DNA of 64,000 nucleotides from an uncultured Pelagibacteraceae bacterium (lineage in GTDB: Bacteria > Pseudomonadota > Alphaproteobacteria > Pelagibacterales > AG-422-B15): the NCBI GenBank assembly GCA_902598405.1, contig CACKBQ010000001.1:1456-65455 (forward strand), given 5' to 3'. The position numbers were made by a program, and so were the translations under genes. Positions 3 to 41,093 of this stretch are shown one piece after another; within the stretch, counting starts at the first letter, position 1; each line of letters begins with the position of its first letter. Below the pieces are notes generated by a model that worked only from the letters and a program-made list of their open reading frames with translations, was not told the DNA's origin and searched no databases.

Positions 3-3000
3 CAAACAAGAATTACATCAGAAATTTTTGGTGATGATAGTGAACAAGTTAAACCAATTATAGAAAAAAATGTTTCTGACTCTGCTGCCTTAGATGCCGC
101 GTTTGAATTATATGTTAGAGCTGGAAGATCAGTCCCCCTTGTTAAAACTCTTTTAATTCCTGAGGCGTGGTCAAAAAGGAGTGAACTGATGCCAATTGAG
201 CATAGAAATATGTATGAGTTTTCCAATGCTATTGTAGAACCATGGGATGGACCCGCCGCTATAGCTGCAGTTGACGGAAATTGGATTATTGGTGGTATGG
301 ATCGAAATGGCTTAAGGCCAATGCGGTACTCTGTATCAAATGACAACATAATATACGTTGGTTCCGAAACAGGAATGGTCAGAGTTGATGAATCAAAGAT
401 AGTTGAAAAAGGGAGACTGGGCCCTGGAGATATAATTGGAATAAATTTAAAGGAAGGTAAGATTTATCGTAACTCTGATTTAAAAGACTATCTTGCAAAA
501 GAAGCTCCTTATGAAGAGTATGTCAAAAAAATAATTCGATTAGATAAAAGAGTAACAGTTTCAAGAGAGTCGACAGTTATAGAAACTGAAAAATTAAGAA
601 AGAGAATGATCGCGGCTGGCTTCACAATGGAAGAACTAGAACTTATTCTTCATCCAATGGTGAGTGATGCCAAGGAATCTACTGGAAGCATGGGTGACGA
701 TACTCCTGTTGCTGTATTATCGGACAAGTATCGGCCATTATCTCATTTTTTTAGACAAAAGTTTAGTCAGGTAACAAACCCTCCAATTGATAGTCTAAGA
801 GAGCAAAGTAGAATGAGTTTAAAAACTCGATTTGGAAATTTGCAAGATATTCTATCTCCCAATCCGTATGAAGAAAATGTTTTTGTAATTGATAGTCCAT
901 TTATAACAAATGGATTGTTCAAAAAGATTTCTGCTCGGGGACAAGAGTCTACAACTGTAATTGATTGTACAGTTCATAAGGATAATTTTAATTTAAAAGA
1001 GGAAATAAAGCGTATTCAATTCGAGTCTGAGACTGCAGTTTTAAGCGGAAAGTCTCATATCGTGCTGTCTGATATTACTGCGGATCACGACAAATTATCT
1101 CTACCAATGATACTGATCACCGCTGCAGTTCATACAGATTTGACACGTAAAGGTATAAGATCTTTTGTATCATTGCACGTAAGGTCTGCAGAGTGTCTGG
1201 ATACTCATTACTTTGCTGTACTTATTGGTGTTGGTGCCACGACAGTAAACCCATACTTAGCATTAGACTGTATTTATGAAAGACAACAAAAGGGACTCTT
1301 TGGAAATTTATCTTACGAGGAATGTGTTGAGCGATATAAAAAAGCAGTAGACCAAGGCTTGCTTAAAGTTATGTCTAAGCTTGGAATTTCAGTTATTAGT
1401 GCTTACAGGGGCGGATTTAATTTTGAAGCTGTTGGCTTAAGCCGCTCAATGGTCAATGAATATTTCCTTGGTGTACAAAGTCGTATGTCAGGCATTGGTC
1501 TATCTGGAATTGAAAAAAAACTAACCGATCTTCATAATTATGCGTATTCGGATAGCGTACAAACATTGCCGATTGGTGGTATATATCGGTACAGAAACGG
1601 TGGTGAAACTCATGCTTATGAAGGCAAGTTGATACACCTTCTACAAACAGCGGTTGCGGATGACTCTTATGAGATGTTTAAAAAATATTCAAACTCCATG
1701 AGCAACTTTGCTCCAATCAATATTAGAGATTTGCTCGAGTTTAAAGAAAGTGAAAGTTCAATCGAATTAAGCGAAGTGGAATCAATAACGTCTATCAGAA
1801 AGCGCTTCGGTACAGGAAGTATGTCACATGGAGCACTTTCAAAGGAGGCCCATGAAACACTAGCAATAGCAATGAACCGGATCGGAGGTGCTTCTTGTTC
1901 AGGCGAAGGTGGTGAATCGATTGAAAGATCGAAGCCTCTCAATAATGGAGACAGTGCCAACTCAAGAGTAAAACAAGTAGCTTCTGCAAGGTTTGGTGTA
2001 ACAACTGAATATTTAAATAACTGTGAGGAAATAGAGATTAAAATAGCACAAGGAGCTAAGCCTGGTGAGGGTGGTCAGCTTCCTGGATTTAAAGTTACTA
2101 CTGAGATAGCCAAGCTTCGCCACTCAACAGAAGGTGTTACACTTATAAGCCCTCCACCACATCATGATATTTATTCAATAGAAGATCTTGCTCAACTTAT
2201 TTATGACTTAAAACAGGCAAACCCAGATGCTAGAGTTTGTGTAAAGCTTGTAGCATCATCTGGAATTGGAACAATAGCGGCAGGTGTTGCGAAGGCTAAA
2301 GCTGACGTCATTTTAATTTCAGGACATAATGGTGGAACTGGAGCAAGCCCTCAAACAAGTATTAAATACGCGGGTATCCCGTGGGAAATGGGTTTAACAG
2401 AAGTGAATCAAGTTTTGACACTTAACGGCTTAAGGCAAAACGTTGTGCTTAGAACTGATGGGGGTATCAAAACAGGTCGTGACGTTGTAATTGCTGCAAT
2501 CATGGGCGCCGAGGAGTTTGGGGTTGGCACAACTTCACTCGTTGCGATGGGCTGTATAATGGTAAGGCAATGTCACTCAAACACATGTCCAGTTGGAGTT
2601 TGTACCCAAGATGAGGACTTAAGGGCGAGATTTTCAGGTAGCCCTGAAAAAGTGGTTAACCTTTTTAGTTATATAGCTGAAGAGGTAAGAGAGATCTTAG
2701 CAAAACTTGGATTCAAAAGTCTAAACGAAATTATCGGAAGAACTGACCTTTTGTATCAAATATCAAGGGGATCAACTCATTTAGATGACTTAGACCTTAA
2801 TTCATTGCTCATTCAAGCGGAAAAGGATCCAAACGTAGAATACTTTAACCACTCCATTATTAATGACGTTGGGTCAACACTTGACCAAAAAATTATTGAG
2901 GATGCATCTAAATTTTTACAAACAGGTCAAAAAACTGAACTAAACTATCCCATTAGAAATACCGATAGAGCTGTTGGTACAAGATTATCTTCGACTATAT

Positions 3001-18796: not shown

Positions 18797-18886
18797 GGAA
18801 AGGTGGCCGAGTGGTTGAAGGCGCACGCTTGGAAAGCGTGTATGCGGGTGACCGTATCGTGGGTTCGAATCCCATCCTTTCCGCCA
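18797..18886 (+). tRNA. tRNA-Ser (anticodon GGA), CCA encoded
   Basis: GGAAAGG...CCTTTCC forms the acceptor stem. The anticodon stem is CACGC/GCGTG with loop TTGGAAA. It has a long variable arm, a GGTTCGAATCC T-loop, and a terminal GCCA. Confidence 0.93.
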
Positions 18887-18926: not shown

Positions 18927-19949
18927 ATGGCTATGAATTTAGATAAATTTGAGAAATATCCACTTACTTATGGACCTACTCCAATTGAGTATCTGCCGCG
19001 TTTGACTGAAGCGATAGGCGCTGATGTTGAGATATATGCAAAGAGAGATGACTGTAATTCAGGTTTGGCTATGGGTGGAAATAAACTAAGAAAACTAGAA
19101 TATATTGTTCCAGATGCTATTGCCTCTGGAGCTGATACATTAGTTTCTATTGGCGGTGTTCAATCTAACCATACTAGAATGGTAGCTGCAACTGCTGCGA
19201 AAATTGGAATGAAGTGTGTTGTTGTTCAAGAAAGTTGGGTTCCTCATGAAGATGCAGTTTACGATCGTGTTGGTAATATTTTAATGACGCGTTTGATGGG
19301 AGCAGATAGCAGGTTAGTACCTGACGGTTTTGATATTGGGATTAGAAAAAGCTGGGAAGACGCAATTCAATCAGTGAAAGATAGGGGTGGTAAGCCTTAT
19401 GCAATTCCAGCCGGGGCATCTGTGCATAAATATGGTGGACTGGGATACGTAGGATTTGCTGAAGAAGTTCGAATGCAAGAAAAAGAATTGTCATTAAAAT
19501 TTGATTACATCATTGTGTGTGTAGTTACTGGCTCAACTCAGGCAGGGATGATCGTTGGGTTCGCAGAGGATGACCGTGCACACAGAGTTATAGGTATTGA
19601 TGGATCGGGTACACCAGATAAATTAGCAAAGCAAGTGAGAGAAATCGTAGATAATACAGCTGATTTAGTTGAACTAGGAAGAATAATTAGAGACGATGAA
19701 ATAATAATTATTCCTGACTATGCATATCCAGCATATGGAGTTCCGAGTGAAGAAACTAATGAGGCTATTCGTATGGCAGCAAAAACTGAGGCCATGATTA
19801 CTGATCCTGTTTATGAGGGTAAATCTATGCAAGGAATGATTGATTTAGCCAGGAAAGGTTACTTTAAAAAAGGATCTAGAATACTCTATGCTCATCTTGG
19901 TGGAGTTCCAGCTATTAATGGCTACTCATATACGTACCGTAATGGATAA
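18927..19949 (+). CDS. acdS: 1-aminocyclopropane-1-carboxylate deaminase
   Basis: It is near-collinear with Pseudomonas AcdS as I recall it ([44 protein letters not shown]). It carries the Glu (VYEGKS) and Leu (AHLGG) residues that distinguish ACC deaminases from D-cysteine desulfhydrases. Confidence 0.85.
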
Positions 19950-20166: not shown

Positions 20167-21369
20167 ATGCAGTTATTCAGACACTCTTATTCAACATTAG
20201 TAATTATTGGAGGTTGCATACTCTTGCTTGTCTCATTTGGTATAAGACATTCTTCTGGACTTTATTTAATCCCAATTTCTGAGCATATCCAAACTGGAAG
20301 AGAAGTATTTGGTTTTGCTATTGCAATACAATTTCTAATGATTGGAATTGGATCGCCAATTTTTGGCGCTATAGCCGATAAATATAGCTCATCGGTTGCT
20401 GGCCTCTTAGGAGTAATTTTCTTTTTAATCGGACTTTACTTGATGTCACTTGTTGAAGGATCAATCCTTCTAATCATTTCACAAATAATTTTTGGATTTG
20501 GATGCGCTGGGTGTGGTACAGCTGTAATATTAGGGGCTGTTGGAAAAGCTGTAACAGGTAAATATCAAACATTATCTTTAGGTGTTGTAATGGCAGCAGG
20601 TTCGCTGGGTCAATTTTTAATTGTTCCTCTTACAGGCTTCTTAATTGAAATGAGTGATTGGCAAAGATCAATCTTATATCTTTGTTTTATTTCGCTTATC
20701 ATGATTTTATTTTCACTAGTATTAACAAAGCATTCATCCAAAAGTGGAATAAATGATGAAGTTAATAGATCTTTGGTATCTGTTTTAAATGAAGCCTTTG
20801 CAAATAAGAGCTATGTCTTACTGACAATTGGTTTTTTTGTTTGTGGTTTTCATATTTCTTTTATAGCAACTCATCTACCCGCATACCTTGATGATTTATC
20901 TTTACCGATGTGGATCGGTTCATGGTCCTTAGCATTAATTGGTTTATTTAATGTAATAGGCACACTAGTTTTTGGTCATTTAGGGGACCTAAGATCTAAA
21001 AAAAATCTATTGGTAATATTGTATACTTTACGTGCCTTACTGTTTTTAATTTTTATCTTTTTGCCAAAAACTGAAATTACAGTTTTAATTTTTGCGTCAC
21101 TTCTTGGAATTCTATGGCTATCCACAGTGCCACTTACCAGTGGAATTATATCCGTTATTTTTGGATCCAAATATATGTCTATGCTGTACGGTTTTACTTT
21201 CTTATCTCACCAAGTCGGTTCGTTTGTTGGTTCATGGTTTGGAGGCAGGTTTTATGATTATTATGGTTCTTATGATATTATGTGGTGGGCTTGTGTTATT
21301 TTAGGGTTTGCCTCTGCAGTAGTTCATTTTCCTATTAAAGAAACACCACTAGTCAAAATGGCAAATTAA
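20167..21369 (+). CDS. MFS transporter
   Basis: It has 12 predicted TM segments, 400 aa, and typical MFS loop spacing. The substrate is unknown. Confidence 0.8.
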   Translation: MQLFRHSYSTLVIIGGCILLLVSFGIRHSSGLYLIPISEHIQTGREVFGFAIAIQFLMIGIGSPIFGAIADKYSSSVAGLLGVIFFLIGLYLMSLVEGSILLIISQIIFGFGCAGCGTAVILGAVGKAVTGKYQTLSLGVVMAAGSLGQFLIVPLTGFLIEMSDWQRSILYLCFISLIMILFSLVLTKHSSKSGINDEVNRSLVSVLNEAFANKSYVLLTIGFFVCGFHISFIATHLPAYLDDLSLPMWIGSWSLALIGLFNVIGTLVFGHLGDLRSKKNLLVILYTLRALLFLIFIFLPKTEITVLIFASLLGILWLSTVPLTSGIISVIFGSKYMSMLYGFTFLSHQVGSFVGSWFGGRFYDYYGSYDIMWWACVILGFASAVVHFPIKETPLVKMAN

Positions 21370-21446: not shown

Positions 21447-21671
21447 GTGCCCAAAAGTTCAAAAAAAAGATCATTTGTTAAAGCTCTTACCTGGAGAGTA
21501 ACTGCAACAGCAGATACATTTTTAATCAGTTACCTAGTAATTTTAAAATCAGATTTTTCAGTTCTTGAAACTGCTGGTTTAATCGCTGCATTCGAAGTAA
21601 TTACAAAGGTAACTATTTATTATTTTCATGAAAGAATATGGAATTCTTTATCTTGGGGCATGGAATCTTAA
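21447..21671 (+). CDS. small membrane protein, DUF2061-like
   Basis: It has a GTG start. The pattern SFVKALTWRVTATADTFLISYLV...HERIWN matches my memory of DUF2061. Confidence 0.5.
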   Translation: MPKSSKKRSFVKALTWRVTATADTFLISYLVILKSDFSVLETAGLIAAFEVITKVTIYYFHERIWNSLSWGMES

Positions 21672-21715: not shown

Positions 21716-21732
21716 TTATCCACTTATCCACA
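21716..21732 (+). promoter_or_regulatory. two overlapping direct DnaA-box matches (TTATCCACT + TTATCCACA)
   Basis: The sequence reads TTATCCACTTATCCACA. The second box is a perfect match to the TTATCCACA consensus and the first is 8/9. AT-rich DNA follows immediately. Confidence 0.5.
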
Positions 21733-21799
21733 TCGTATAAGGAGTTTTTTTAATAAAACTTATTTAAAATTTTTTTTCTAATTGGTAATATTTTTATAT

Positions 21800-21911
21800 C
21801 GGACGAACAAAGAACGAAAGCCCTTCGGGGAGTTTGTCGGCGGGAAGCCGAGTTTCGGGGCGGAATGGAGACCTTTAGGGGTTTGTGTTGCGCCCCGTTT
21901 TTTTTGCTCCC
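21800..21911 (+). ncRNA. GC-rich structured leader / candidate riboswitch or attenuator upstream of the LysE-family gene
   Basis: This is a G+C island in AT-rich spacer. A stem pairs 21807-21811 with 21833-21837 and encloses a cUUCGg hairpin (21821-21830). Hairpin CGGC/GCCG (21838-21850), hairpin CCGA/UCGG (21848-21858) and the terminator stem (21856-21862/21891-21897) share bases. Confidence 0.55.
21856..21905 (+). terminator. intrinsic terminator-like hairpin plus U8
   Basis: CGGGGCG (21856-21862) pairs with CGCCCCG (21891-21897). An inner 5-bp helix pairs 21869-21873 with 21880-21884. T8 follows at 21898-21905. The element ends 28 nt before the ATG at 21934. Confidence 0.6.
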
Positions 21912-21933
21912 TTAAATACCACTGCTCGTTTTT

Positions 21934-22560
21934 ATGATCTTTGATTTCTCACTACTTTACTTTTTCATACCAGTTTTTTTCATAATATCCATTACTCCAG
22001 GTTTATGCATGACACTTGCTTTAACAATGGGAATTACAATAGGTGTAAAAAATACAATGAAAATGATGGTTGGAGAATTAATTGGAGTTTTAATTGTGGC
22101 AGGTACAGCGGTGGTAGGAGGTGGAGCGATCATCTCATCTTTTCCAATTGCATTTGCTGTTTTCAAATATGGAGGAGGTCTTTATTTGATGTTTGTTGGG
22201 TATCAGATGATTAACTCAAGAGGATCACTAGCATTAAATTTGGATGGTTCACATTCATTTGAAATAAATTTTTTTAAGTTAGCAATGCAAGGCTTTATAA
22301 CTGCTGTTGCGAATCCAAAAGGTTGGGCATTTTTTATTGCGATGGTACCTGCATTTATTAATTACGAAGCAAATTTAATCCCACAAATGTCAGCTCTCGT
22401 AATAATTATTCTTATAATTGAGTTTATTTCACTTATGATTTACGCAACAGGAGGTCAAGCTTTAGGTATTGTGTTAAAAAAACAAAATAATATCAGGCTT
22501 ATTAATGGGTTAGCAGGTTTCTTGATGGTGGGCGTTGGTGTTTGGTTAGCTCTTAGCTAA
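21934..22560 (+). CDS. LysE/RhtB-family amino-acid exporter
   Basis: It has the ITPG motif near the N-terminus (ISITPGLCM), ANPKGWAFF in the middle, 6 TM segments and 208 aa. Confidence 0.8.
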   Translation: MIFDFSLLYFFIPVFFIISITPGLCMTLALTMGITIGVKNTMKMMVGELIGVLIVAGTAVVGGGAIISSFPIAFAVFKYGGGLYLMFVGYQMINSRGSLALNLDGSHSFEINFFKLAMQGFITAVANPKGWAFFIAMVPAFINYEANLIPQMSALVIIILIIEFISLMIYATGGQALGIVLKKQNNIRLINGLAGFLMVGVGVWLALS

Positions 22561-40940: not shown

Positions 40941-40992
40941 TAATTTATTATTTATTAAACAACATTTTATTTTCGTTATGATACAATATTTT

Positions 40993-41082
40993 GGGAGATT
41001 GAGTAGACAAGTTATTCGCCAATCCGGTCAGGTCTGAAAAGAAGCAGCCGTAACGAAGATATTTGGGTTACGTTGATCTCCC
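40993..41082 (+). ncRNA. ffs: signal recognition particle RNA (small bacterial 4.5S type)
   Basis: It contains GGTCAGGTCTGAAAAGAAGCAGCC, matching the conserved domain IV GGUCAGGUCCGGAAGGAAGCAGCC. The terminal helix is GGGAGAT/ATCTCCC. It occupies the conserved position upstream of dnaX. Confidence 0.85.
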
Positions 41083-41093
41083 ACTAAAGATTA

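Follow-up and report, generated by a model that had tools for sequence, protein, structure and literature searches.

A GC-rich block in the spacer between a DUF2061 gene and a LysE/RhtB-family exporter gene of an uncultured Pelagibacteraceae bacterium (contig CACKBQ010000001.1 of assembly GCA_902598405.1) raises the question whether it is a switch that controls the exporter gene or an RNA unit in its own right. The whole stretch analyzed here, referred to as the window, comprises 64,000 nucleotides, and coordinates are those of the window unless another locus is named. A first-pass annotation had described the block as a leader with three mutually exclusive hairpins and a terminator, preferring a riboswitch and offering a stand-alone small RNA with its own terminator as the alternative. 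Our analysis revealed that the block is a conserved structured RNA, new with respect both to Rfam and to the 2009 survey of SAR11 RNAs (Meyer et al., 2009). The alternative is the better fit to the evidence: the element has, in our estimate, an even chance of being an autonomous small RNA unit, which would comprise DnaA-type boxes, a promoter, an RNA of ~108 nt and a terminator, and would be carried by a subset of SAR11 (Pelagibacteraceae).

Identification and conservation of the element

The element occupies positions 21798 to 21905 of the forward strand (108 nt), from a nearly invariant AUCGGA (21798-21803) to the end of a U8 tract, within the spacer between the DUF2061 gene (21447-21671) and the LysE gene. 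The clearly raised G+C content that had first drawn attention to it was confirmed (0.59 in 21800-21899 vs 0.18-0.34 in the flanking DNA), and the fold of a 121-nt stretch holding the element is better than that of 197 out of 200 shuffled sequences (z = -2.3, 3/200 as good). Covariance model R1 matched 21798-21905 at 121.6 bits. The 5' end of the RNA is placed provisionally, by the position of the putative promoter and the invariant AUCGGA.

A protein-anchored scan with one genome per species yielded 58 LysE loci, 41 of which hold the element, and 13 further loci with the element were obtained from metagenomes by a pattern scan. The metagenome pattern, with four free positions, was too loose, and ~90% of the loci that it returned matched by chance and came from samples of gut, soil and the like. 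Each locus with the element has a single copy. No copy was found in the viral contigs scanned, and a search for more variants in the other LysE and MFS orthologue groups brought up none with the element. The copies fall into four sequence types, A to D, and the window element belongs to type A. Among the 32 distinct element sequences aligned, the mean column identity is 87%, with nearly invariant blocks at the 5' AUCGGA, CGAAAGCCYUUCGGGGAGUUUGU, UUUCGGGGC, CCUUUNGGGG and GCCCCGUUU. The 22-nt hairpin core CGAAAGCCYUUCGGGGAGUUUG is nearly invariant (its columns are invariant in A1), and the region between the core and the terminator (21838-21855) varies among types in both sequence and pairing. 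An apparent decayed or deleted copy (ATCGG...AATTTGTTGCGCTCGTTTTTT), undetected by the covariance model, was seen upstream of a 91%-identical partial LysE in a co-assembled metagenome-assembled genome labelled Rhizobiaceae (L053, ~2890-2960).

A search of the whole window against Rfam at the gathering score returned only two tRNAs and the signal recognition particle (SRP) RNA; the element had no match, and it was likewise unmatched at the gathering score in types B-D and the other loci. For types A and C, permissive scans (E <= 10) of the element gave noise only (snoRNAs, Ms1, and suhB at 11-17 bits). The scan against all families, RF00080 included, which had been proposed in the first-pass annotation, gave no family match, and the earlier statement that the block cannot be assigned to a known class is borne out. 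The SRP RNA itself (40990-41088) scored only 50.7 bits (gathering score 40) and has several non-canonical pairs, being a typical reduced SAR11 version.

Fold of the RNA and search for a switch

In the predicted fold of the RNA, an almost invariant hairpin (21815-21836) caps a 5' domain, which a short A/U-rich linker joins to a long terminator hairpin. The terminator hairpin (21856-21897) stands on a 7-bp GC stem (21856-21862 with 21891-21897) that is directly followed by the U8 tract (21898-21905), the arrangement of an intrinsic terminator, and stem and tract agree with the earlier description. In the alignment, 97.7% of the cells of its 15 pairs are paired and four pairs are changed on both sides; when the pairing partners were shifted as a control, pairing collapsed. 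The stem of type D carries compensatory changes (CCG/CGG vs CCA/UGG), and the partition function of the window RNA gives the base of the terminator a pair probability of 0.8-1.0. Types A-C have a U-tract of T7-T9, and type D has TTTCTATTT. A simple terminator scan overlooked this terminator because of its loop limit of 3-8 nt. Sequence and covariation together demonstrate the terminator, and the RNA would end at the U8 tract.

The core hairpin H1 of the 5' domain (21815-21836; CGAAAGCCC-UUCG-GGGAGUUUG, with tandem G.A/A.G mismatches) is almost invariant and has pair probabilities of 0.83-0.93. Its tetraloop hairpin CCY-UUCG-GGG, which reads CCC-UUCG-GGG at 21821-21830 as first noted, is unbroken in all sequences, with variation in the loop (UUCG, UUAG, UCCG, UUUG, CUUG). 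Around it, two mutually exclusive helices are possible. The one proposed at first, ACAAA (21807-21811) with UUUGU (21833-21837), can indeed be drawn and is 95.6% paired in the alignment, with only G-U-compatible changes; it is broken in type D and has a probability of ~0.001. The other, an extension of the hairpin (CGAA/UUUG, C18-G39 to A21-U36, numbered from the RNA start), is invariant, energetically favoured and has pair probabilities of 0.83-0.87. In L184, a type D sequence from single-amplified genome AH-287-F15 with the loop CUUG, the G opposite A34 is changed to U, making a U-A pair, which fits the extended hairpin with its tandem mismatches.

Hairpin H2 (21838-21850, CGGC-GGGAA-GCCG), which occurs in type A only, has a probability of ~0.9 in the window. 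The single-stranded linker that follows (AGUUU, 21851-21855) is A/U-rich and 5-6 nt long in every type (AGUUU, AGAUUG, GAAUUU, UGUUU). A closing helix, P1, can be formed in every type between the 5' UCGG(A) and a CCG(A/G) or CG just before the linker (CCGA at 21848-21851 in the window); one sequence (L028) has an A-U to U-A double change in it, and its probability in the window is only ~0.06. The H1 tip recurs at the tip of the terminator hairpin (21867-21888, GGAGACCUUUAGGGGUUUGUGU; CCYUUCGGGGAGUUUGU in H1 vs CCUUUMGGGGnnUUUGU), and the repeat pattern CCYTNNGGGGNNTTTGT matches at 21821 and 21872. Both the consensus and the single-sequence folds give two or three independent hairpins. The two near-identical modules suggest that a dimeric protein, or a partner RNA common to both, may bind here. 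A leader peptide was rejected, the sole AUG of the element (GGAAUGG) being replaced by AAUAG or AUAUAG in other types, and so was a 51-aa TTG open reading frame (ORF), which is purely mechanical.

If the block were a riboswitch or a protein-dependent attenuator, a ligand or protein on the 5' domain would prevent or weaken termination at U8 and turn LysE on; the bound 5' domain might dock onto the similar terminator tip, and the type D element would be a relic or have another target of control. Exporters are typical targets of ON-switches. The nearly invariant core, stems included, next to a spacer and a closing helix that differ by type (with one double change), may be compared with aptamers, and CCGA, the 3' strand of the closing helix, has a second possible partner in the first bases of the terminator. 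At the terminator tip, types A-C have kept GAGACC somewhat better than type D has. However, although the overlapping helices CGGC/GCCG (21838-21850) and CCGA/UCGG (21848-21858) exist as pairings where they had been placed, two of the three overlapping helices (ACAAA/UUUGU and CCGA/UCGG) have a probability of ~0.001, also in a transcript that stops short of a complete terminator, and the overlapping helices are not conserved across types A-D. The candidate antiterminator CCGA/UCGG has 4 bp and a 3-nt loop and shares bases with both of its neighbours. Barring the 3' strand of the terminator costs 16.4 kcal/mol, and no natural competitor helix replaces it. Transcripts of the four types cut in mid-terminator gave four different weak folds (z 0.1-1.4), which have no structure in common and none of which sequesters the 5' strand of the terminator; a competing conserved antiterminator helix, as expected of a riboswitch, was not found in the four types. 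Complementarity between the 5' domain and the LysE start region was no better than in shuffled controls in 5 of 6 loci, and no Rfam riboswitch family matched. No working expression platform was found among the folds of the four types, and the switch-like reading is not supported.

Putative upstream promoter and DnaA-type boxes

Transcription of the RNA would start at about 21798 from a sigma-70-type promoter, with a putative extended -10 box TGg-TAATAT (21783-21791, forward strand) and a -35-like hexamer TTTAAA (21763-21768, forward strand) 17 nt upstream of it. Each of the 53 distinct upstream sequences has a TAnnnT hexamer beginning at -13 to -10 from the A of AUCGGA, and 15 of them have TGn in front of it. 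TTTAAA or TTGAAA stands at a spacing of 16-18 nt in most of the 53, which is a weak argument in AT-rich DNA. A candidate promoter of its own at a conserved distance is what would be expected of a free-standing small RNA.

Tandem DnaA-type boxes (TTATCCAC-TTATCCACA, 21716-21732, forward strand) end 65 nt before the RNA start and consist of a perfect 9-mer at 21724 (9/9) and a one-mismatch copy at 21716 (8/9). They are found in 53 of 53 copies, ending 63-66 nt before the RNA start, with diverged AT-rich DNA in between. Types A and B share the sequence TTATCCAC-TTATCCACA, whereas type C has TTTTCCAC-TTATCCACA and type D TTATCCACA-TATCCACA. Fixed distances between the RNA, the -10 box and the tandem boxes in four diverged types argue for a single unit, in which the boxes, lying ~65 nt further upstream, probably set the activity of the promoter.

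The match to the consensus suggests that DnaA binds these boxes. In E. coli, a ChIP-seq study found that DnaA prefers box pairs 2-3 bp apart (Stringer et al., 2024, PMC11317965). Like E. coli promoters under DnaA control, the element has a pair of neighbouring, equally oriented boxes ahead of its putative promoter, the proximal one being the perfect TTATCCACA; unlike them, its boxes abut or overlap with an 8-bp period, and the target is a non-coding RNA. Because this period differs from the E. coli spacing, it is only the consensus that points to DnaA. A replication origin was rejected: there is no cumulative GC skew minimum at 21.7 kb, only two boxes are present, and the genes from 8.4 to 22.5 kb are all directed towards the site instead of diverging from it. 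Direct control of a regulatory RNA by DnaA, which would link the output of the RNA and of LysE to the replication or growth state and in which the two near-identical hairpins would be a platform for a dimeric partner, seems to us rather unlikely.

Linkage to the LysE and MFS genes

The LysE/RhtB-family exporter gene (21934-22560, forward strand; PF01810, E = 6.8e-21; the match to the RhtB-type subfamily is below the NCBIfam cut-offs) encodes a protein that is 100% identical to the LysE of the Pelagibacteraceae single-cell genome AG-892-M06. Its ATG at 21934 lies 28 nt past the U-tract, as had been annotated, and the corresponding gap is 28-36 nt in types A-C. Since the gap of 28 nt leaves no room for a promoter, LysE is transcribed here only by read-through of the terminator, and the unit directly before it would amount to attenuation by construction. 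The constant neighbour of the element is an MFS transporter gene (20167-21369, forward strand; MFS_1, oxalate/formate-antiporter-like), which lies upstream on the same strand in every copy with sufficient flank in types A-D; the DUF2061 gene (forward strand) stands between the two in type A only. The element was present at every locus with an MFS orthologue of at least 80% identity and sufficient downstream sequence, and absent behind MFS orthologues of 73-76% identity.

Type D comprises five sequences from different samples (L072, L128, L130, L169 and L184), in which the core, the promoter and the boxes are kept and a same-strand downstream gene is absent. Where the flanks are long, the order is MFS gene, element, a convergent 99-aa gene and a 1-aminocyclopropane-1-carboxylate (ACC) deaminase gene. 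The LysE gene of L128 lies at a distance of 5.1 kb; it has no leader and follows an alternative-oxidase gene after 6 nt. LysE orthologues without the element were also detected in L194 (87% identity), L024 (84%), L040 (82%), and L191 and L195 (both 80%), as well as in a group of 70% LysE identity in which the MFS and LysE genes are divergent. In the comparison of orthologues proposed in the first-pass annotation, the element is conserved in 41 of the 58 LysE loci, and several orthologues of 80-87% identity lack it. At the level of sequence, these loci demonstrate that the element is kept independently of LysE, as expected of a free-standing small RNA; it therefore goes together with the MFS gene of one SAR11 sub-lineage, and it is a leader of LysE only where LysE happens to follow.

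The same loci bear on the riboswitch. A switch would be expected to lie consistently upstream of functionally related genes, but type D retains element, promoter and boxes without LysE, and close LysE orthologues elsewhere do without the element. With negligible alternative helices, no conserved antiterminator and a type D kept without LysE downstream, the riboswitch can no longer be the preferred reading. In types A-C, there is no space for a separate LysE promoter, and as read-through into LysE is obligatory, we keep ligand- or protein-controlled read-through as a possible, if doubtful, explanation.

Another explanation takes the element as mainly a passive 3' end, that is, a terminator or insulator of the MFS(-DUF2061) operon whose extra hairpins would guard the mRNA from exonucleases. 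It is consistent with the position of the element, always behind the MFS gene on the same strand, and with the thermodynamic signal, which comes mostly from the terminator hairpin; moreover, no other terminator-like hairpin was found between the upstream stop codons and the element. However, a plain terminator leaves the invariant core, the AUCGGA and the fixed distances of the -10 box (7 nt) and the tandem boxes (63-66 nt) unexplained, and the MFS orthologues of 73-76% identity manage without the element, which makes a purely passive role improbable.

The autonomous small RNA unit is the most parsimonious model, and the RNA would then have a function of its own, exerted in trans. Several points weigh against this. 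A duplex scan of the RNA against the neighbouring start regions in the window and the LysE leaders gave no target above controls. The RNA is an obligatory leader of the exporter gene in three of four types, the typical place of an ON-riboswitch. The 5' domain alone is no more stable than shuffled sequence (z = 0.1 to 1.4), and, with the exception of one sequence, its helices are without double compensatory changes. The covariation statistics are weak because the sample consists of 30-odd distinct sequences from four closely related clades. A generic promoter scan did not list the -10/-35 promoter, and, as promoter-like hexamers are easily found at ~20% GC, the start site is a prediction. SAR11 start sites have been mapped in a Red Sea mdRNA-Seq study, in the accessible parts of which no SAR11 record of this element turned up.

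In addition to these main features, several neighbouring sequences were recorded. The convergent ORF of type D (99 aa, cysteine-rich; on the reverse strand in L128, at 10380-10679 in L169 and at 5405-5668 in L184) had no NCBIfam match, and the precomputed Pfam hits of the called L184 gene read '-'; its stop codon lies inside the U-tract of the element, so the 3' end of its mRNA would be antisense to the RNA. In the window, the gene at 18927-19949 is a true ACC deaminase by TIGR01274 (542 bits vs a cut-off of 392) and lies 44 nt past a tRNA gene (18797-18883); types A and D differ in where it lies with respect to the element. The 36 nt between U-tract and LysE ATG in type C (L025-L041) hold an 8-bp hairpin (UUUGUGUC...GGAUACAAA), and the type C LysE leader also holds AAUCGGAUACAAA, an echo of the 5' end of the element (AUCGGAACAACAAA). 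Gammaproteobacterial LysE orthologues (L050-L055, 67-68% identity) have a conserved GC-rich upstream sequence of their own with hairpins GCCGCCATTGGCGGC and GCCCAAGCGAATTCACCTTGGGT, ~170 nt before the LysE start (locus positions ~2830-3000), which matched no Rfam family and no known riboswitch that might give a clue to the substrate.

Comparison with known RNAs

The LysE superfamily also holds the Mn2+ exporter MntP, and the first-pass annotation had been reminded of the L1 halves of the yybP-ykoY riboswitch (RF00080). Both short words are present, GGGGAGU at 21827-21833 and GAGACC(UUU) with GAGACC at 21868-21873, but the element is not a member of the family: RF00080 gave no match at the gathering score, nor at E <= 10 on stretches of 351, 126 and 131 nt. 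In Xanthomonas, the 3' half of L1 and P1.1 read GAGACCAGGGAU, GAGACC lies where L1 meets P1.1, and L1 contains non-canonical G.A and G.G pairs (PMC6754395), to which the tandem G.A/A.G mismatches of H1 may be compared. Both RNAs have non-canonical G.A pairs beside a short GC helix, and both lie upstream of a membrane exporter and are followed by a terminator. One could imagine a rearranged miniature relative, the two L1 halves of which sit on two hairpins that dock to bind a metal ion. However, the four-way junction of yybP-ykoY, with two legs docking L1 and L3, is missing from the folds of the element, which has two hairpins, and the L1 halves (GGAGUA, GAGA) face each other as opposite strands of one loop in yybP-ykoY, whereas those of the element are in separate hairpins. 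GAGACC is lost in type D (AAGACC, AUAUCC, AAUACC), and the position matching the A-minor adenosine varies in the second hairpin. None of the gene classes usual for the family (mntP, terC and others) is present; the downstream gene is RhtB-type (PF01810), and the type D element has no downstream gene at all. We regard such a relationship as highly improbable.

A 'rhtB motif' was described among the 'other potential RNA motifs' of Candidatus Pelagibacter ubique (Meyer et al., 2009, BMC Genomics 10:268, PMC2704228, Additional file 8), with the consensus GAUAGUCCUn-YYUAGCCAUC-UUUAGCUCCC-GGUUUU...AGGACUAUC. It shares with the element the restriction to SAR11 and marine metagenomes, the place just upstream of a rhtB (LysE-type) gene, a conserved hairpin with U6-9 behind it in about half of the cases (a possible terminator) and an extended -10-like TGCTATATT just upstream. 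In contrast to the element, it is a single bulged hairpin (GAUAGUCCU...UAGCCAUCUUUAGCUCCCGGUU...AGGACUAUC), and its sequence and shape are unrelated. The core of the rhtB motif, TTAGCCATCTTTAGCTCCCGGTT, does not occur in the window even with up to 3 mismatches allowed, and the core words of the element are absent from all alignments of that paper. Identity of the two was rejected, and the rhtB motif is a different RNA in an analogous place. The rhtB gene of the motif seems to begin with Met-Leu-Pro right after the U-tract; as no such N-terminus was found among the 120 closest relatives of the window LysE, it is probably a paralogue. The sequence directly past the U-tract of the element (GCUCCCUUAAAU, 21906-21917) resembles the coding start AUG-CUC-CCC in the rhtB motif alignment, which may be a relic or a coincidence.

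The only family with sub-threshold similarity was suhB/MmgR (alpha-r8, RF00519), at 10.9 bits in the window (E = 5.1) and 17.0 bits in L027 (E = 0.14). Like the element, this RNA is intergenic and alphaproteobacterial; its first hairpin reads GCCC-UUCUU-GGGC, and its terminator has a U8 tract. Membership was rejected, since these scores are far below the gathering score of 41, the E-values stem from a tiny search space and the similarity covers one small hairpin and the U-tract.

As a general class, there are intergenic and 3'-untranslated-region-type small RNAs that start from their own promoter and end at the same terminator as the gene before them, as well as riboswitch leaders doubling as free RNAs. 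The element resembles this class in its putative promoter past a coding gene, in a terminator that would also end upstream transcripts, and in the conserved 5' domain and the A/U-rich linker before the terminator. It differs in that its conserved part is a double-stranded hairpin core and not an open seed.

Biological significance

SAR11 is the most abundant group of marine bacteria, with a minimal set of protein regulators and unusually heavy use of RNA-based control. Neither Rfam nor the 2009 survey includes this conserved structured RNA, which thereby extends the short list of SAR11 RNAs; it is a new SAR11 RNA family in an unusual promoter context, and not a new kind of RNA. The locus shows how a free-standing RNA unit can become the obligatory leader of a neighbouring exporter gene by position alone. 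If it is true that the boxes bind DnaA, replication status would be linked to RNA-based regulation in a streamlined genome.

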